From Escherichia phage phiEco32: a DNA stretch of 64,000 nt. The stretch's first letter is position 1. The number at the start of each line of letters is the position of its first letter. The notes beneath the pieces were generated by a model that had not been told where the DNA came from, searched no databases, and saw nothing but the letters and a program-made list of their open reading frames with translations. The position numbers were made by a program, and so were the translations under genes. Location of the stretch: sequence record NC_010324.1; one strand, 5' to 3'. Of this stretch, positions 2,860-61,916 are shown one piece after another.

Positions 2860-5800
2860 ATGGCGCTGTATCCAATAAAGTCATTAGGTGCTGTAGGCGT
2901 TATCGCTGATCAGGCTCCGACAGACTTAGCTCCTAATGCTTTCACTAATGCTATAAATGCTCGATTTGTGGAGCAGAGAGTATTTAAGACGGGGGGCAAT
3001 GCCCCTCTTTCTTATGTAGATGAAGATAAGGATTTAACCCCTCTGTCTTTCATTTCTATGCCTTTCGATTATTATAGCGCAGGTAATAGCTTTCTTGTTG
3101 TAGGTACGGATAAGAAGTTATATAAACTGACAGATGAAAGCTTGACTGATATTAGCCGTAAGGTTGCTACAGTCACTAAAAAGGCTTCTGCCTCAATTAA
3201 GATTTATCCGGTTGTTTCTCAGATTGTTCCTAAAGAATCAACCATCTCAATGAACTTCAATCAGACCAAGAATCTAGAGGTTTCTCTTCTTCCTGCTGAT
3301 GCCAACAATACCGATCTTGTTTGGGAGGTTAGTAACTCATCTTATGGAAGTATTACAGTAGACCCTAGTGACTCTAAACTTGCTACTCTAACATCTTTTG
3401 AGAAAGAGGGTAATCTTGTAGTAACTATCTCTACTGCCAATGAATCCGTAGTGGCTCAGATTGCTGTTAATATCATAGATGGTGATTCAGGCATCTTCTT
3501 GAGTCAAGATACTGTTACAATTCGTAAGGGAGGGACTACTACTCTCACGGCTGTTACTGGCAAGACTCCTGTAACTTGGTCCAGCAGTAACGCTTCTATT
3601 GTATCCGTAACCCCTAACGCCAACTCTTTAACTGCTGTCATTACAGCGAATGGAGAAGGTAATGTAACAATCACTGCTGATAACGGGACTAAGACTGCTT
3701 CTTGTGAGATTGTTTCTATCCCTCAGATTGATAGTATCTCTTTAAGCCAGTCAGATGTTACTGTGAGTAGAGGTTCTCAGTACATCTTAACTGCTACCCT
3801 TTCTCCTGCTAACGCCCCTAATCAAAATATTACTTGGACCTCTTCTAATCCAAATATTGCAACAGTATCAGGGACTAGCACACAAGGGACGATCAACGCT
3901 CTACTTGCTGGTTTTACTGAGATTACAGCTACCACTGAAGAAGGCAACAGGATTGCTGTCTGTACTGTACGTGTAGATTTAGCTGGGAGGACAATGAGAA
4001 CAAGTGCTATGGCATTTGCCGCTCCTGTGTCAGAGTCAGTAGAAACTCAAGAGGAAGAAGTAGTAACTCCTCCTGAAAGTGAAGAGACGGTTTATTTTGC
4101 TGAGCCTACATCTGGTATTGATACATCAGGGATGTACGAAGGTAATAACTTCTACGATTACTCTAACGTGAATGACATTGAAGGTTTTGCAAGAGCTTCT
4201 TTACTGGCAACCCCTCTGTCATCTGTAACCTTAGATATTGTCAGCGCTTCTCTTGATGTTGGTGAAGAGATTGTCATTACAGCCACAGCTTCTCCAGAAG
4301 GTGAGTACTCTTATCAGTGGTCTGTTGATAAAACTGGTTATGTTTCTACAACCTCAGTTACTGGTAAATCTATCAAACTGGTTGCTCTTCGTAAAGGAGA
4401 GATTAACGTAACATGTACTGTCAGTCAGATGACTCAGAAGGATTACGATGCTTTTGATGACTACCCTTGGTATCACGCTGTTATCTCTAACTGTGCAGTT
4501 GCTACAACTCACTATGAAACTCCTCAGGTAAAAGAATTCGAATCAGAATACTTTGTAGACCTTCCGGGGTGGGGTGAGCAAACAGTTGTTGATAATGATG
4601 GAAACCCTTCAGTCAAGAAGTTTAACTGGAAATGTGAGAGAGTAAGATCTTTTAACAACCGTCTTTTTGCTCTGAATATGAGAGAGGCTAACGCTTCTGG
4701 TGTTACCACTAACTACCCTCTTCGTCTTCGTTGGTCTAACTTTGCCAACGAGAACAAGGCTCCTACACTGTGGGATGACTTTGCCTATGATCGAGTTGTG
4801 TCTTCGGACTTAGCTTCTAACATCGTAGGGCAGACTCAGGCTCTAGAGAATGGGTATGCTGGTTACATCGACTTAGCAGATTCTAATGGTAGCTTGATTG
4901 ATATCCTACCTCTTAAAGATTACTTGTTCGTTTATACAGAGTTTGAAACGTATATTGGTTCTCCGACTAATAACACGTACCAACCTCTAATGTTCAAGAA
5001 GCTCTTTAACGACTCTGGTATCCTTGCTCCCGAGTGTGTGGTTGAAGTAGAAGGTAGTCATTTCGTAGTTACTCAGAACGATGTAATCTTACACAACGGT
5101 GCAACCAAGAAGTCAATTGCATCTAACCGTGTTAAGAATATGTTGATTAATGAGGTGTGTCTGGTTAATCCTCTAGCAACTCGAGTACACTTGCATCAGG
5201 ATAAGAAAGAAGTTTGGGTTCTCTATGTAGGACCGGGGGAGCCAAAAGAAAGCTTCGCTTGTACTAAAGCTGCTGTATGGAACTACGAGTTTGATACTTG
5301 GTCTTTCCGTACTATCCCATATGCTCAGTGTATTGGTCTGGTTGATCCTCCTGTTTTAGAAAGAGGTCCAATCTGGTCTGACTTCCAAGAAATCACTTGG
5401 GATGACCCATCTATTAAAGAACTCGTTTGGAGAAAGGATGCAACAAACTTTAGACAGAGGGTTACGATAGTAGGTTCATTCTTGAAGGGATTCTATCAAG
5501 TGGATGTAGGTGCTCTTGATTATTTCTATGACAGGCTAAATGATGTTGTTATAGAGAAGCCTCTGGAAATGAGGTTGGAGAGGACTGGTATAGATTTTGA
5601 TAATGTGACTAATGAGTGGAATCAGAAGCATATTAACAGGTTCCGGCCTCAGACAACCGGTTCAGGTACTTACATATTTGAAGCTGGTGGTAGTCAATTC
5701 TCAAATGAATACGGACACCCACACACATCTAAGACATATACGATCGGTGTTGACAGGCACGTCTCGGTGAGACTGAACCATCCATACCTTTTCTATAATG

Positions 5801-52796: not shown

Positions 52797-52873
52797 TGGC
52801 GCACCCTACAGGATTCGAACCTGTAACCGACGGATTAGAAATCCGATGTTCTGTCCAATTGAACTAAGGGCGC
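52797..52873 (-). tRNA. tRNA-Arg (anticodon UCU), CCA encoded
   Basis: Minus-strand cloverleaf: acceptor GCGCCCT/AGGGTGC (one G-U), D-arm GTTC-AATTGGACA-GAAC, anticodon loop UUUCUAA, T-arm ACAGG-TTCGAAT-CCTGT, discriminator G then CCA. Acceptor and T-arm match E. coli argU from memory. Confidence 0.85.
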
Positions 52874-57062: not shown

Positions 57063-57506
57063 CTACTTAACCCTTGCCTCTTTGATGGGGTCAATGTATT
57101 TCTCAACGCCCCACTTGTGTTTACTATCTGCGTAGAAAACATCAGGTGCACACTGGCTTGTCTTAGGGAAAGCCTGAGGGTCTTTCGTGCTACCCTTAAA
57201 CTTCTGTTTACCACGGGTGCGACCATTACAGAAGATTTCTAACTTCTTCTCTTCTTCTGTTTTAGCGCCCCCGCTCTGTAACAAAGAACGTTTATGATCA
57301 GCTAACAACAACGCATCAGCACGATGGACACGATGGCCTACACGTTTTGCCACACTGGAAGGAACAAGGGATTCAGCCTCAGCCTTTGCAGCACGACGTT
57401 TTAAACTACGCTTACTAACGTGATTAGTTGCCTTCGGTTTCTCTTTCTCTAGTTCAGAGATAGCAAAACAACGCCCGCCCTTCATGCTGATTTTAGATTT
57501 AGCCAC
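57063..57506 (-). CDS. hypothetical basic protein
   Basis: 147 aa, Lys/Arg-rich; followed by a hairpin and the conserved AGTACTAAAAGAGG element. Confidence 0.4.
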   Translation of the reverse strand: MAKSKISMKGGRCFAISELEKEKPKATNHVSKRSLKRRAAKAEAESLVPSSVAKRVGHRVHRADALLLADHKRSLLQSGGAKTEEEKKLEIFCNGRTRGKQKFKGSTKDPQAFPKTSQCAPDVFYADSKHKWGVEKYIDPIKEARVK

Positions 57507-58332: not shown

Positions 58333-59232
58333 TTATGCCGCCTGACGTGCCGCCATAATTTCAGCCGCTTTACGCAATACTTCTTCCTCTTCTGCTTTCG
58401 CCGCTTGTTCGGTACGGGTAGCAACCGTTGAAGAGATACGACCGCGCAGGCTTTCTAACTTCTCCTGCATAGTTGCAATGGTCTTTTCCATTTCATCAGC
58501 GTATGAATCGAGTGATTCTAATTCCTTGCTTGATGCGTTCATCAGATAATCATCTGAGATCGCTACCGTCGAGGCCGTGACTTTCTTGATGAGTGAATCA
58601 AAGGACTTTTTAACCTTCCCAACTTCTTCACTCAGGGCGATAGTGTTATCGCTAGTTGCGCCGTTGCGCTCATCAGCCAGTAATTTGGCTTCAATACGGA
58701 TTGCATTCAAGCGTTCAACTAAAGCGTAAATATCCTGATTAAAATCTTCCTTGTTTTTCGCCGGAATTTGCAGGTGTGCCGCCACGTTGTCATTACAACC
58801 CTTGTAAAAGTTAGGGTTATCGACTTCAATTTCACGGCCTAAAGCAAAGTTTTCGAAAGCGTTTGACCAGCGAGCGCGGTTTTGTTCCATTTTGGCCTTA
58901 ATTTGCGCTTCTTTCGCGTCTTCTTTAGCTTTCGCCTCACCTTCCAGATTAATCCACTTTTTACGACCATTTGCCGCATCGGTGTTAAACTTGATAGGAG
59001 TTAAGAAAGTAATTGCAGTGGCAATCACATCCATATCACGAAAACGTTCAGTTAACAAGAAGTCAACCGCCGTCTGCAATACGTCCAGCTTTTTACCGTT
59101 ACTGCGGAAGTGCTGTAAGTGCCCTAACAGGAAGTTAGAAACATCTTGTTTGATCGCCGCGTTATTGCTACGAATGTTGTTAGCCAGTGCGTTAAAACCA
59201 GATTCGTTAACCAGAGTAAAGATTTTAGCCAT
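58333..59232 (-). CDS. hypothetical coiled-coil protein
   Basis: Start set to ATG 59232 (MAKIFTL...) with AAGGTGA SD 5 nt upstream; GC content visibly higher than the phage average. Confidence 0.5.
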   Translation of the reverse strand: MAKIFTLVNESGFNALANNIRSNNAAIKQDVSNFLLGHLQHFRSNGKKLDVLQTAVDFLLTERFRDMDVIATAITFLTPIKFNTDAANGRKKWINLEGEAKAKEDAKEAQIKAKMEQNRARWSNAFENFALGREIEVDNPNFYKGCNDNVAAHLQIPAKNKEDFNQDIYALVERLNAIRIEAKLLADERNGATSDNTIALSEEVGKVKKSFDSLIKKVTASTVAISDDYLMNASSKELESLDSYADEMEKTIATMQEKLESLRGRISSTVATRTEQAAKAEEEEVLRKAAEIMAARQAA

Positions 59233-60052
59233 GATATTCACCTTTCAATTGTAAGGGCGCTATTGCCCCGCTCTCTATGAGCTTGTTTAAGTCACTATTA
59301 ACTTAACTATAACCACTCGTTGTTAAGTAGTTATAGGTAAGCGGGGCGGTCTTATCAGGAGTTAACCTTGCCGCCCCCTTATCCGTGATGTTTCATCTGG
59401 TATCTTTAATTAGTCGCTATAAACGAAGCCGACCTGATAGCGATGATCAATCATCACAATAAGGCAGTGCGTCCGACTCTAATTAGTTACGTTTATTGTA
59501 ACCGTCGGCAATATCGTCTACTTTGCTTTCGCTCTCGCCTATCCTTTTGTATCAACTCTCAATCACTAGCCATCGCCCACAACGGGATGCTATTGTGAAA
59601 GAGTCATTGACCGTCTAATGTTCTGACGTTTTATATCTTTCGGCAAGTTTACTACATAAACCGACTATGTACTTTCATCTTGTGATGAATCTCAAGCCGT
59701 TCACATCGTAAACGTTCACACTAAACCTTATTGTTAAATAGCAATTTGCCACTTTTTAACCACTCCCCGCCGCCCTCAATTGGGCGTTAATTCTTCGGGC
59801 TTGCCTACCCTGATTAACTTCTTTCACTGTAGCGCCTTGTTAGCGATGGCCGCCGCTACCCTTAACCGTGGGCGATTAGCTTAAGCCTTTGCGTGCACTC
59901 AATGAATCCGTTTATCAGTGGTGACGTTTCCAGTAAGGGAATGTAAAACTGTTTACCCTGATAATTTAGGGAGTCTTACGCCGTTTTATCTGGTATGCTT
60001 TCCGATGGTTATTATCATCAAGCATATTCAACCGATATAGGAGAATGTTTAA

Positions 60053-60720
60053 ATTATTAAAGAGCGGTAAATCTATCAGTGTGCTTTCTCACACTATGCA
60101 ACTGTTAGCCGTTGTTACGCTTTCCTTAAGCGGTGATTTGCTTAAGTGTGCTCATTATGAATCATGCTGTTTTAGCTGTCAACCACTTTTTTAATCTTTT
60201 TCGTCGTTCCCGCTGTTGGGAGGATATATCAATCAGCTATGTTTGATTGAAGATTAAGCGGCAAGGCTTAAACTTATGATTCATATTTTTAAAGAGCGGT
60301 TACTACATTCACAGCTTAACACATCGTGTTAGCTTGTCAAACTCTTTTTTATCATCTTCTTTTATTCCGTTCCCTTATCTCGCTTGAATCTATGCGAAAA
60401 GGCAAGATGATAAGTCTGATTTGTCTTTTAGGAATCTAGTGCACTTTCAAGCATCGACCATTTGAAAGTATCGAACAAATGAGGCTTATTTTGTTGCTCA
60501 TCGTCCGCCTGTTTCACGTATGAATCAGGAATCAATTCTAGCGGTCAACTAAGCGCCTTATAGTAATGACGTTACCGCCACCTGTAAGACAAATCATATT
60601 TTTAAAGAGCGGGATGTTTTGATTCATCGCTGAATGAGTGCTCATTATGTATCAGGCTTTTTCCGGTGTCAATACTCTTTTTTAAGTATTTTCACTTTCT
60701 AGCCTGATTTTTAAAGAGCG
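60053..60720. repeat. four dispersed copies of a 14-15-nt repeat (A)TTTTTAAAGAGCG(G) within an ORF-free region
   Basis: Copies at about 60053-60067 (variant ttattaaagagcgg), 60285-60299, 60598-60612 and 60707-60720; two are preceded by tgattcat/aaatcat; irregular spacing (232, 313, 109 nt). Confidence 0.5.
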
Positions 60721-61176
60721 TAGCACTTCGTTGTGCGTCCTACCGTCGGTATTCCTACCGCTCCCCGTTGAAGCCTTTTACCGTGATGCTAATCACCTAT
60801 CAGGGAATCTTGTTGCTTGTTGCTTACTGCTTACTACGGGATTCATATTACTATACAGGAAAACCCTGTCAATACCCTTTTTTCAAACTATTTTACATCT
60901 CATTGTTTTATAAAGGAATTTATTTTAGGGATGATAGGAACTACAAAGAAATCAGGATATAGAGGAACGGGTGCGCGTGATACATCACAAGAAACGGCTT
61001 GTAAAGCAATAATAAGCGTCCTAAAACGCATCACAACGAGCTAAAAGGGAGTAAGGTATACAATCACCTTAGAAAAGAAAAAAGCCTCTTAATGAGGCTT
61101 ACAGGAAGGATTTAAAGCATCAGATAGATTATGACCATAGGCATGACCACGGCACAATACAGGAGAAAGATTAAGC

Positions 61177-61542
61177 CTATGGATTTACACATTGACCGTT
61201 ACCGGATGCCATTTCATTCATGGACTCATCAAAGAGCGTTAACGATGAGCGCATCAAGTGATCGACCGTGATTTGTTTACCAGTGGATTCATTTACCAGT
61301 TGAACAGTTTTATCATATGATTGCACATGATCGAAATCATTTACATGCAAAATAATAACTTTAGGTGACTTTTTACCGGTTTCATAGTTTTCTACAAGAT
61401 AAGTACATTGCAAGCCGTCAACCGTAGCAGGGGAAAATGTTGCAGCCTTAACGCTACCCATAGCCGATAGCAGGACACCTAACAGAAGAACGACCAGAAA
61501 GAAGCCTACAACCGTTTTAACGACGAATTTAATAAACCACAT
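61177..61542 (-). CDS. secreted/membrane protein (N-terminal signal-anchor)
   Basis: 121 aa; MWFIKFVVKTVVGFFLVVLLLGVLLSAMGSVKA. Confidence 0.45.
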   Translation of the reverse strand: MWFIKFVVKTVVGFFLVVLLLGVLLSAMGSVKAATFSPATVDGLQCTYLVENYETGKKSPKVIILHVNDFDHVQSYDKTVQLVNESTGKQITVDHLMRSSLTLFDESMNEMASGNGQCVNP

Positions 61543-61634
61543 AGCAATAAACCTTTAGTTAGAGAATATAAGAATAGAGCATATCAGCGACGAATAACGC
61601 CACTGTAATAACGAACAAGCAACGCCAAAAATAA

Positions 61635-61916
61635 TCATTCTTCTTCATTGATACCCTCGCCAAAAAATGCTACGCTGATCTGTTCCACTTCTTCCAGCGA
61701 TAGGAGAATCCCACGTTGCGCCAAATACTTCCCAACTGTTATATAATCCTGCACCAGACAAACAACGGGAAAGCGGATATTTTGTATCTCACCTTTAGAA
61801 AGAAAAGATAAATAACCAGCGTCGATTGATTCATCAAAGGACAATGTAACGCCACCGTAATTATGCGTATCAATTAACGCAATAGTTTCATTTCCCATAA
61901 CGTTTCCAATCCTCAT
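61635..61916 (-). CDS. hypothetical protein
   Basis: 93-aa ORF in the co-directional run at the right end of the window. Confidence 0.4.
   Translation of the reverse strand: MRIGNVMGNETIALIDTHNYGGVTLSFDESIDAGYLSFLSKGEIQNIRFPVVCLVQDYITVGKYLAQRGILLSLEEVEQISVAFFGEGINEEE

Follow-up and report, generated by a model that had tools for sequence, protein, structure and literature searches.

The spacer between the homologues of SU10 genes 120 and 121 is devoid of genes in ~99 related phages, which poses the question what this stretch of DNA is for. In Escherichia phage phiEco32 (NC_010324.1) it occupies positions 59233-61176 of the window, by which we mean the whole 64,000-nt stretch analysed here, and is 94.5% identical to SU10 72570-74506 (spacer CDS120/CDS121). 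We propose that in this Kuravirus the gene-free block, read leftward from the minus strand, serves as the main region from which early transcription is controlled, and that the early transcripts would be made Rho-resistant in the manner of rRNA while carrying a large structured RNA. To this explanation as a whole we assign a probability of roughly 0.7. What it says about BoxA function is modelled on E. coli rrn operons, lambda nut sites, suhB and CRISPR leaders.

Both genes flanking the block are on the minus strand. Position 59232, which the initial annotation took for the end of a gene, is thus the start of one: the ATG of a 299-aa gene lies there, and the ORF list extends its start to a GTG at 59241. 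The next minus-strand gene beyond the block spans 61177-61542. The following features mark the two borders:

61082-61100, minus strand: intrinsic terminator from the terminator scan (stem-loop AAGCCTCATTAAGAGGCTT, then TTTTCTTTTC), closing the right-end mini-operon (homologues of SU10 121-125)
59230-59246, minus strand: AAGGTGA (Shine-Dalgarno) and the ATG with which the long early operon opens; its first gene encodes 299 aa and belongs to PHROG 13018, a family without assigned function

The terminator is also annotated in SU10 and is kept in relatives with variants in loop and stem. In SU10, the block sits ~3-5 kb from the right genome end, behind a small promoter-terminator operon.

The description of the block as an ORF desert is borne out. 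Between the flanking genes only three ORFs reach 60 aa; they overlap each other at 60731-61044 on the plus strand and start with TTG. Neither these nor six other small ORFs of the block (nine in total) match a PHROG family. On the transcribed strand of the conserved leader described below, the longest ORF has ~25 aa in most relatives, and small ORFs are truncated, frame-shifted or have lost their start codon across relatives. A protein-coding or small-gene reading was rejected because the ORFs are broken in relatives and have no PHROG match.

Promoters and boxA elements

All the dispersed repeats and the hairpin described initially were found again and, read on the transcribed minus strand, the repeats resolve into parts of promoters and boxA elements. 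The four copies of (A)TTTTTAAAGAGCGG (60049-60067, 60281-60299, 60594-60612 and 60703-60721; two identical over 19 nt, two variants) become CCGCTCTTTAAAAAT on this strand, and all four match the BoxA consensus GYTCTTTAANA. The two copies of GTGCTCATTATG(A/T)ATCA are part of a 54-nt repeat (60148-60201 and 60638-60691), in which GTGCTCATTATG is the minus-strand CATAAT -10 box of two promoters, P2 and P4. TGTCAA..CTTTTTT corresponds to the A-tract and TTGACA box of four tandem sigma-70 promoters, and the inverted repeat agcttaacac-atc-gtgttagct at 60314-60335 forms the spacer of promoter P3. The motif tgattcat occurs nine times in the window (4.07 expected), with four of these copies inside 60157-60627. 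In the direction of transcription, the elements are:

60845-60886, minus strand: promoter P1; A-tract TTGAAAAAAGGGTA, TTGACA 60872-60867, 16-nt spacer, TAATAT 60850-60845; score 10/12
60709-60719, minus strand: boxA-1, ACGCTCTTTAAAAATCA; perfect consensus, ~+120 from the predicted P1 start
60644-60686, minus strand: promoter P2; A-tract CTTAAAAAAGAGTA, TTGACA, 17-nt spacer, CATAAT; score 11/12
60600-60610, minus strand: boxA-2, CCGCTCTTTAAAAATAT; perfect consensus, ~+28 from the predicted P2 start
60313-60354, minus strand: promoter P3; A-tract, TTGACA 60340-60335, 16-nt palindromic spacer, TAAGCT 60318-60313; score 9/12
60287-60297, minus strand: boxA-3, CCGCTCTTTAAAAATAT; perfect consensus, ~+10 from the predicted P3 start
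60154-60196, minus strand: promoter P4; A-tract GATTAAAAAAGTGG, TTGACA, 17-nt spacer, CATAAT; score 11/12
60077-60096, minus strand: hairpin TAGTGTGAGAAAGCACACTG just upstream of boxA-4, in the position of boxB in rrn leaders
60055-60065, minus strand: boxA-4, CCGCTCTTTAATAATTTAAAC; perfect consensus, invariant block in 21 sequences
59268-59276, minus strand: anti-boxA AGAGAGCGG, complementary to every boxA copy

The four promoters are near-consensus, with the layouts TTGACA-17-CATAAT (twice), TTGACA-16-TAATAT and TTGACA-16-TAAGCT. The number of promoter hits in 58800-61700 is not above that in shuffled sequences (8 vs 6.1); the top three hits in this interval are all on the minus strand and have a perfect TTGACA. 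Judged from sequence, transcription would start near 60838 (P1), 60637 (P2), 60306 (P3) and 60147 (P4). P3 is the weakest of the four; EK010 and four of the six SU7-like phages carry TAGAAT (11/12) as its -10 box. P4 is found in every relative scanned. A-tracts of the AAAAA(A)G type precede all four promoters and end 2-3 nt before TTGACA (AAAAAAGAG, AAAAAAGGG, AAAAAAGTG), as they do in relatives. The proximal subsite of UP elements has the consensus AAAAAARNR and lies directly upstream of the -35 box; judged by this consensus, the A-tracts are UP-like elements. A cluster of strong promoters or regulator sites had been among the functions suggested for the block, and a promoter cluster is what it holds. 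Three of its members were already predicted as sigma-70 early promoters in this spacer in the SU10 paper, 'like phiEco32': P2, whose -10 box is the second GTGCTCATTATG copy, corresponds to the SU10 promoter at 73996, P3 to that at 73668 and P4 to that at 73511. P1 is absent from the SU10 promoter table.

The gamma-proteobacterial BoxA consensus is GYTCTTTAANA (PMC5725501). Known boxA sequences include UGCUCUUUA in rrn and CGCUCUUA in lambda, the nutL boxA-spacer reads cgcucuuaaaaauuaa, and the rrnB leader of MG1655, as read from the genome, contains GCTCTTTAACAATTTA. The 64 kb of the window hold five matches to the consensus against 0.54 expected, a number reached in none of 100 shuffles. Four of them, at 60055, 60287, 60600 and 60709, are perfect minus-strand matches within 670 bp, so placed that one boxA lies downstream of each promoter, on the transcribed strand and upstream of a 915-nt untranslated leader. 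The only other near-matches in the window (at most two mismatches to CGCTCTTTAAAAA) are at 5412 (minus strand, perfect consensus) and at 57272 (plus strand, two mismatches); thus, the right-end operon, which has a short leader, has no boxA.

This arrangement is conserved. Promoters alternate with three to five boxA copies in 21 of 21 relatives, including those whose modules cannot otherwise be aligned. PJNS034 has two modules in which a GYTCTTTAANA sequence follows a sigma-70 promoter. The boxA-3 position has a perfect consensus in all 21 relatives scanned, with varying flanking bases, and in every case 825-834 nt separate the last boxA from the gene-120 ATG. In most relatives boxA-4 reads TTTAACAATTTA, identical in 16 of 16 positions to the E. 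coli rrnB boxA and spacer GCTCTTTAACAATTTA. The 3' spacer of boxA-4 is AAUAAUUUA in phiEco32 and ACAAUUUA in most relatives, the latter identical to rrn; boxA-1, -2 and -3 are followed by AAAAAUCA or AAAAAUAU, which lack the AUU triplet, reportedly important for the binding of NusA. Promoter and boxA are separated by a variable distance (~+10 to ~+120). An imperfect hairpin, TCATTCAGCGATGAATCA, precedes boxA-2, and the hairpin ahead of boxA-4 is helix 3 of the consensus fold, with compensatory changes in three of its seven pairs. A GU-rich boxC and a fixed boxB partner, which rrn can do without, are missing at the boxA copies. Since the last boxA would serve all transcripts, the upstream copies need an added argument, namely early protection of each transcript.

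In the consensus fold, boxA-4 pairs with the anti-boxA AGAGAGCGG 800 nt downstream (helix 4), a pairing that covariation cannot test because both sides are invariant. The alternative is a local hairpin, GCUC-AUAGA-GAGC. If real, the long-range pairing would be in competition with NusB/NusE for boxA-4. As the RNA is being made, boxA emerges well ahead of this putative partner.

Conservation and fold of the leader RNA

All four promoters feed an RNA with the following parts, the helices being numbered as in the consensus fold:

59233-60147, minus strand: structured untranslated leader RNA, ~915 nt, from the predicted P4 start up to the ATG of the 299-aa gene
59755-60053, minus strand: leader domain I, helices 5-16; multi-branched, ~300 nt
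59456-59734, minus strand: leader domain II, helices 18-28; multi-branched, ~280 nt, with a closing 10-bp helix ACAAUAAGGU/GCCUUAUUGU
59256-59455, minus strand: 3' hairpin row, helices 29-36

In 21 relatives, the stretch between the P4 -10 box and the ATG measures 914-930 nt, and the mean pairwise identity of the leader (86.5%) exceeds that of the adjacent gene (82.9%). Folded as a single sequence, the minus strand has a minimum free energy with z = -7.5, compared with z = -4.8 for the plus strand. In the alignment, the consensus fold reaches -242 kcal/mol against -104.6 +/- 5.5 for column-shuffled alignments (z = -25) and contains 80 compensatory pairs, where refolded column shuffles yield 13 (maximum 20). 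Counting pairs gives the same picture, with 77 pairs changed on both sides vs 32 +/- 3 in shuffles (0/500) and 4-10 in slid controls. The opposite strand has a far weaker consensus fold (-160, 49 pairs), and the leader pairs contain 532 G-U cells but 15 A-C cells. Together, the strand-specific fold and the excess of G-U over A-C are a signature of selection on RNA. The adjacent mRNA of the same phages served as a negative control and gave z = +0.4 with 14 compensatory pairs, equal to shuffles. Along the sequence, leader windows have z = -3.5 to -5.9 and the flanking genes mostly -2.5 to +1.5, with two coding windows also near -3.

The long-range helix that closes domain I begins directly 3' of boxA-4. 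Within domain II, helices 22, 23 and 25 have 6-7 compensatory pairs each. The 3' hairpin row includes GGGGCGG...CCGCCCC (59377-59343) and a 15-pair stem-loop (59342-59301); helices 32 and 34 have five compensatory pairs each, with G-U intermediates. As the 21 aligned relatives are close (at least 74% identical) and phylogenetically non-independent, the details of the fold are tentative, especially for the invariant long-range helices. The divergence floor of ~74% also held in wider searches: IMG/VR, queried by DNA pattern and neighbouring protein, returned only 3-4 close relatives, a single metagenome scan nine contigs that were all 87-94% identical, and tblastn with the neighbouring protein the same ~96 phages.

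The terminator scan detected no terminator-like site within the leader on the transcribed strand. Of the initial suggestion that the block encodes a set of small RNAs, the non-coding RNA remains, in the form of one long read-through leader of ~915 nt. The Rfam and tRNA search proposed in the initial annotation produced no family for the block. At the gathering threshold, Rfam 15 yielded only tRNA-Arg, and the leader matches no family; at permissive E-values the best hit in 59100-61300 has E >= 2.3, far below cut-offs. A tRNA/tmRNA scan likewise found only this known tRNA-Arg, which lies far from the block at 52800-52873. Against 5,426 E. coli genomes, the leader has no blastn match, so it is not a host copy or decoy detectable by this method.

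Proposed mechanism and competing explanations

We propose that host RNA polymerase would use the four promoters immediately after infection, beyond the terminator of the right-end operon. The nascent RNA from each promoter would carry a consensus BoxA that binds NusB/NusE and, together with NusA, NusG and SuhB, would turn the polymerase into a Rho-resistant, processive form. Nus-factor binding and Rho resistance at the predicted boxA copies are here transferred by analogy. BoxA would be needed since transcripts from any of the four promoters run for at least 915 nt without being translated, which makes them a natural Rho substrate, and BoxA is documented as protecting long untranslated transcripts from Rho. 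The leader itself is under selection, its two ~300-nt multi-branched domains and its hairpin row being kept by compensatory substitutions. Our preferred guess is that it is an rRNA-like, co-transcriptionally chaperoned RNA, which may stabilise or regulate the early mRNA or be released as a stable RNA. A bolder idea, which we hold to be doubtful, is that this large multi-domain phage RNA belongs to a class not described before and does more than serve as a 5' UTR. Such an RNA might borrow the host rrn antitermination and chaperone complex via boxA for its co-transcriptional folding, and could act as a stable RNA or RNP that sequesters a host factor, protects the early mRNA or gates translation of the early operon via boxA/anti-boxA. 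In that case, Kuravirus-like phages would offer a tractable E. coli model for a large non-coding RNA, and no virulent phage before them would have been shown to rely on N-independent BoxA antitermination; this might help to account for transcription of the long leftward early gene cluster by host polymerase.

Three other explanations of the block have to be weighed against this one. A replication origin, also raised in the initial annotation, would be organised such that the promoters drive a structured pre-primer RNA and the repeats bind an origin protein. ColE1 RNA II and transcription-activated origins such as those of T7 are models for this. An origin would fit the size of the block, its lack of genes and its repeats, hairpins and strong promoters, as well as a transcript with G-rich runs and a conserved fold as in pre-primer RNAs, and replication proteins are encoded by this phage group itself. 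Nevertheless, we found no support for an origin and consider it unlikely: the repeats lie 109-313 bp apart in a single orientation, match an independent RNA-signal consensus exactly and are accounted for as boxA and promoter parts, while the pattern of conservation is that of strand-specific RNA structure. Cumulative GC skew, uninformative in such phages, has no inflection at 59-61 kb and follows gene orientation only, switching near 17 kb. The GC content of 0.38-0.43 is like that of the surroundings, no AT-rich unwinding block or iteron array stood out on general inspection, and a Nus-modified complex would be unexpected at an R-loop primer site.

About as unlikely, in our view, is that a phage or host regulator recognises the CCGCTCTTTAAAAAT repeats as DNA, for instance as a roadblock that shuts the early promoters, and that they are not BoxA RNA. 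A copy just downstream of each promoter is in a typical operator position, and early transcription is indeed shut off during phiEco32 infection; however, the known shut-off factor, gp79, targets RNA polymerase and not DNA. Furthermore, the motif is not palindromic, its distance to the promoters is unfixed in a way that is unusual for operators, and all four copies are perfect 11-nt BoxA sequences, one of which extends in most relatives to the 16 nt of rrnB boxA and spacer. The earlier suggestion of a regulator-binding repeat would survive as far as a factor-binding signal is concerned, with the difference that it would act in the RNA and not in the DNA. We judge it similarly unlikely that the leader has no function as RNA and that the region is kept for DNA entry or hides very small genes. 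T5-like injection pause signals and T7-like spacers for transcription-driven entry are the cases to compare, and a position ~3-5 kb from the SU10 right end, behind a small operon, recalls first-step-transfer DNA; ten tiny CDSs are annotated in the block by one database record. Yet a role in DNA entry is at odds with compensatory changes that preserve Watson-Crick and G-U pairing in just one of the strands (532 G-U vs 15 A-C; -242 vs -160), and small genes are at odds with the broken ORFs and missing family matches.

Relation to known systems and significance

The proposed rRNA-style leader is close to the E. coli rrn leader, which combines tandem P1/P2 promoters and an UP element with the series boxB-boxA-boxC, a Nus/SuhB antitermination complex and a leader-trailer helix. 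In both, very strong sigma-70 promoters stand in tandem behind A-tracts, and both have a CUUUA-type boxA (that of most relatives equals rrnB over GCTCTTTAACAATTTA), a hairpin 5' of the boxA (boxA-4 in the phage), a long-range helix right after it and a long, untranslated and highly structured transcript. In contrast to the single leader boxA of rrn, the phage has four promoter/boxA modules, without boxC; no rRNA product but protein-coding early genes follow, and the leader is carried by a virulent phage. Beyond the short boxA signal, it has no sequence similarity to E. coli genomes. Like lambda nutL and nutR, the phage elements are an early-operon signal downstream of early promoters, with a boxA core CGCUCUU(U)A and an A-rich spacer that resembles nutL cgcucuuaaaaauuaa. 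In lambda, where antitermination depends on N, a protein of the N family binds a boxB hairpin that has a GNRA-like loop and lies a few nt 3' of boxA. Unlike in lambda nut, the phage elements are of a stronger consensus type (CUUUA) and have no boxB hairpin at a fixed distance 3' of boxA: by eye, the four copies share no such hairpin, and those hairpins that are present lie 5', as in rrn. Given the CUUUA-type boxA and the lack of a fixed 3' boxB, the phage boxA is probably N-independent, like that of rrn, and we do not file it as a nut site.

The BoxA elements of CRISPR arrays and the suhB 5' UTR (Stringer 2020; Baniulyte 2017) similarly stand at the head of a long untranslated transcript, where they counter Rho, and were detected with the same consensus as used here. 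They are chromosomal and single-copy, whereas those of the phage are multiplied, coupled to promoters and precede a folded RNA instead of a repeat array. We found no literature, within the library that could be searched, that links boxA to phiEco32 or to lytic phages, and neither the boxA elements nor the structured leader seems to have been described before.

Clustered strong host-type promoters near a genome end are also found in T7 (A1-A2-A3) and T5, where very strong early promoters fire immediately after infection. To our knowledge, neither BoxA nor a conserved structured leader of 0.9 kb is associated with them, and in the phage block the first gene is ~900 nt away. Large structured RNAs associated with phages include GOLLD and ROOL. 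With these the leader shares a length of several hundred nt, a multi-domain fold with covariation and the phage context; it has no Rfam match to either and is a read-through leader, not a gene with its own terminator. The put element of HK022, which is cis-acting, ~70 nt long and needs no Nus factors, likewise lies just downstream of early promoters. Salmonella phage 7-11, a distant relative, has an analogous leader of 1.1 kb. By nhmmer it shows no homology to the Kuravirus leader, and 7-11 has no boxA consensus, so BoxA is not a universal solution in the wider group.

If the proposed reading is true, a virulent coliphage uses the BoxA/Nus system of host rRNA transcription without a lambda-N-like arrangement. 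This predicts that early expression depends on nusB, nusE and suhB, and becomes Rho-sensitive once boxA is mutated. It would also bear on the means by which host polymerase gets through tens of kilobases of early genes in phages like phiEco32, a problem described as undefined for 7-11 by the authors who studied that phage. Large structured non-coding RNAs are rare and mostly come without a genetic system. Here, an RNA of ~900 nt with unusually strong covariation and no Rfam family occurs in phages that grow on E. coli K-12, where it would be open to direct dissection. Finally, our reading would explain a ~2-kb 'hole' in ~99 records of Kuravirus, Suseptimavirus and Nieuwekanaalvirus, many of them therapy candidates. 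The gene-free spacer is blank in most such records, and a few carry spurious tiny CDSs there.

Genomic setting and coding content

In this gene-free block (59242-61176), a phiEco32-like phage has its cluster of early promoters, as known in outline. Its sequence indicates that the cluster carries rrn-type BoxA antitermination signals, followed by a conserved, structured leader RNA of 0.9 kb, both apparently undescribed so far. Over its 1,935 bases, the block is 94.5% identical to positions 72570-74506 of phage vB_EcoP_SU10, the spacer separating CDS120 and CDS121. About 99 phage records match it at 74-94% identity, all of them phiEco32-like podophages of E. coli and Shigella within the subfamily Gordonclarkvirinae (Kuravirus, Suseptimavirus, Nieuwekanaalvirus). 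Since the genes flanking the gap are all on the minus strand, the block is read on that strand, towards the left. Its downstream part (the first 1,172 bases) is conserved and collinear in every relative, unlike the upstream half (60414-61176), which is mosaic and partly unalignable between clades across the comparison loci L001-L031.

The ORF desert described in the initial annotation is real. Between the ATG of the 299-aa gene and the stop of the 121-aa gene, positions 59233 to 61176 are free of genes; ORFs of at least 60 aa number only three there, which overlap one another, begin with TTG and lie on the opposite strand (60731-61044). In most of the annotated relatives that we fetched, the equivalent gap of 1.9-2.1 kb is annotated without genes; a few records annotate one small ORF, and one annotates ten. 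These ten tiny 'hypothetical proteins' (29-49 aa, both strands) in phage CHD5UKE1 (MZ234028; L002 1702-3292) look like over-annotation, because the same ORFs show no conservation across the relatives. Nine small ORFs from the gap matched no phage protein family; where they lie in the conserved part, relatives have them truncated, frame-shifted or without a start codon. In most relatives, the transcribed strand has no ORF longer than ~25 aa; outside phages Bas88 and TH43, the longest is 23-44 aa in most cases. An 89-aa ORF on this strand of the leader occurs only in these two phages (L014 and L015). Across the 64-kb window, Rfam and ARAGORN searches gave a tRNA-Arg (anticodon TCT; 52797-52873, minus strand) as sole match.

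The 121-aa gene adjoining the gap (61177-61542, minus strand) has a long N-terminal hydrophobic segment (MWFIKFVVKTVVGFFLVVLLLGVLL...). It is labelled 'terminase' in PHROG 13168 and several GenBank records, which is probably a propagated misannotation.

Promoters and BoxA elements

Four sigma-70 promoters are predicted in the gap, P1 being the outermost and P4 the nearest to the first gene.

Predicted early promoters
60872-60845, minus strand: P1, TTGACA-16-TAATAT, found by scan
60672-60644, minus strand: P2, TTGACA-17-CATAAT, found by scan (11/12)
60340-60313, minus strand: P3, TTGACA-16-TAAGCT, the fourth site
60182-60154, minus strand: P4, TTGACA-17-CATAAT, found by scan (11/12)

Every repeat listed in the initial annotation is present in the block. 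The four copies of TGTCAA(N2-3)CTTTTTT read, in reverse complement, as an A-tract followed by TTGACA, while GTGCTCATTATG gives a CATAAT -10 box with GAGCAC after it. The inverted repeat near 60315 is the spacer of P3. The authors of the SU10 study predicted sigma-70 early promoters in the CDS120-CDS121 spacer, 'like phiEco32'. Three of our four promoters match theirs, P1 being absent from the SU10 table. In outline, the promoter part was known before this analysis. The initial annotation is confirmed in its observation and right in part in its interpretation. Neither the spacing of the repeats nor composition nor skew supports a replication origin, which on sequence evidence is an unlikely reading.

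On the transcribed strand, the most conspicuous repeat, (A)TTTTTAAAGAGCGG, becomes CCGCTCTTTAAAAAT, and its sequence identifies it as a BoxA element. The published gamma-proteobacterial BoxA consensus is GYTCTTTAANA (PMC5725501); the boxA sequence is UGCUCUUUA in rrn and CGCUCUUA in lambda, with cgcucuuaaaaauuaa as the nutL boxA and spacer. Reading the E. coli MG1655 rrnB leader directly, we found cactGCTCTTTAACAATTTAtcag. Perfect consensus matches are far above chance in the window (5 against 0.54 expected). Four of the five (60055, 60287, 60600 and 60709) are minus-strand sites, each downstream of one promoter (at ~+83, +10, +28 and +120, respectively, counted from start sites inferred 7 nt past the -10 boxes). 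As an explanation of the motif, a DNA operator is less economical than BoxA, which it matches exactly.

The copy nearest the leader (boxA-4, 60055) is identical over 16 nt to the rrnB boxA and spacer in most relatives, and lies within an invariant alignment block. Promoter and boxA modules alternate across the gap in all 21 relatives scanned, always on a single strand. Even between close relatives, modules have been gained, lost or replaced, leaving three to five boxA copies. Despite this mosaic upstream half, the last boxA is found 825-834 nt from the ATG in 21 of 21. Besides the four copies, the window's only near-matches are a perfect one at 5412 and, on the opposite strand, one with two mismatches at 57272; the right-end operon, whose leader is short, therefore lacks boxA. 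The literature searched contained no paper linking boxA to phiEco32 or to lytic phages.

The fifth perfect match (GTTCTTTAATA; 5412-5422, minus strand) is distant from the early region, lies on the strand opposite to the local positive GC skew and is probably due to chance. An exact AATGTA core of the promoter element of the phage sigma factor (gp36) is located at 60304-60309 (minus strand), between the P3 -10 box and boxA-3 (GAATGTAGTA), where the SU10 authors marked 'alt -10?'. Given both, the two holoenzymes might share P3, and transcription by the gp36 form would then begin right at the boxA. SU7-like phages do not keep the core. The near-palindrome TGATTCAT/ATGAATCA occurs nine times in the window against 4.07 expected, including four copies within 470 bp (60157-60627) on both strands. 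One copy falls within the spacer and -10 box of P4, another directly follows boxA-3 and a third lies in the hairpin preceding boxA-2. It could be the binding site of a dimeric regulator.

A conserved leader RNA

The predicted leader runs from the P4 start to the ATG of the 299-aa gene (60147-59233, minus strand). Measured from where the P4 -10 box ends to this ATG, the stretch is 914-930 nt long in 21 distinct sequences (74-96% identity). Compared with the window, SU7-like phages retain 84-94% identity in the leader, whereas the adjacent gene falls to 66-87%.

Folded as a single sequence, the minus-strand RNA has an MFE of -285.9 kcal/mol (z = -7.5), compared with -254.9 (z = -4.8) for the plus strand. 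RNAalifold on the 21-sequence alignment predicts 241 pairs in 37 helices, with 99.2% paired cells and 532 G-U against 15 A-C cells. Both sides have changed in 77 pairs. This number dropped to 32 +/- 3 when partner letters were shuffled (0/500 attained 77), and to 4-10 when partners were slid by 1-3 columns. Shuffling columns and refolding yielded -104.6 +/- 5.5 kcal/mol and 13 compensatory pairs (maximum 20), against -242 and 80 for the real alignment (z = -25). The mRNA of the adjacent 299-aa gene from the same phages scored -80.0 against -82.9 +/- 6.9 (z = +0.4), with 14 compensatory pairs against 14.2 in its shuffles; the opposite strand of the leader reached just -160, with 49 compensatory pairs. 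From the controls and the strand asymmetry it follows that selection acts on an RNA transcribed from the minus strand. A DNA-entry signal or hidden small genes would leave these strand-specific compensatory changes unexplained.

Elements of the consensus fold
60053-59755, minus strand: domain of ~300 nt, whose closing helix starts right after boxA-4
59754-59736, minus strand: hairpin
59734-59456, minus strand: second domain of ~280 nt
3' of the second domain to the ribosome-binding site, minus strand: row of hairpins

The leader matched no Rfam family and, by blastn, none of 5,426 E. coli genomes. A scan of its transcribed strand found no terminator-like site, which makes it look like a read-through leader. 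The consensus fold pairs boxA-4 with AGAGAGCGG at 59276-59268, which is complementary to every boxA copy. Both partners are invariant in the alignment, and a local hairpin offers an alternative pairing. AGAGAGCGG as a candidate 'anti-boxA' is an attractive idea. The details of the long-range helices depend on limited sequence divergence.

Proposed role and comparable gaps in other phages

Untranslated transcripts are terminated by Rho. Here, 915 nt without translation separate the last promoter from the first start codon, and the distance is longer from the upstream promoters. Nus complexes nucleated by BoxA have been described to shield rRNA and long CRISPR transcripts from Rho, so the succession of promoter, boxA and long leader makes functional sense. 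BoxA in the early transcript would bind NusB/NusE and thereby confer Rho resistance. Compared with lambda nut, the arrangement is closer to the rrn type: boxA is of the CUUUA form, the hairpins lie 5' of boxA instead of 3' (one of them, helix 3 of the fold, has three compensatory pairs), and no boxB is shared at a fixed distance past boxA.

Salmonella phage 7-11 (NC_015938; L033/L034), a distant relative, has an analogous layout, with a gene-free leader of 1,144 nt (from 94 backwards over the record ends to 88866) between experimentally validated early promoters and the first gene, gp151. This leader shows neither a BoxA consensus nor, by nhmmer, any similarity to its Kuravirus counterpart; it folds with moderate stability (z = -3.55 on the transcribed and -1.49 on the other strand). 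The unclassified Escherichia phage PJNS034 (PP391266; 65.7 kb; L035 2881-3192) shares 190 bp of the variable promoter zone at 73% identity. Two promoter-plus-boxA modules lie within this phage's own 1.8-kb gene-free gap, which has leftward genes on one side and a rightward cluster including the terminase gene on the other. The promoter/boxA cassette may be mobile between phage lineages.
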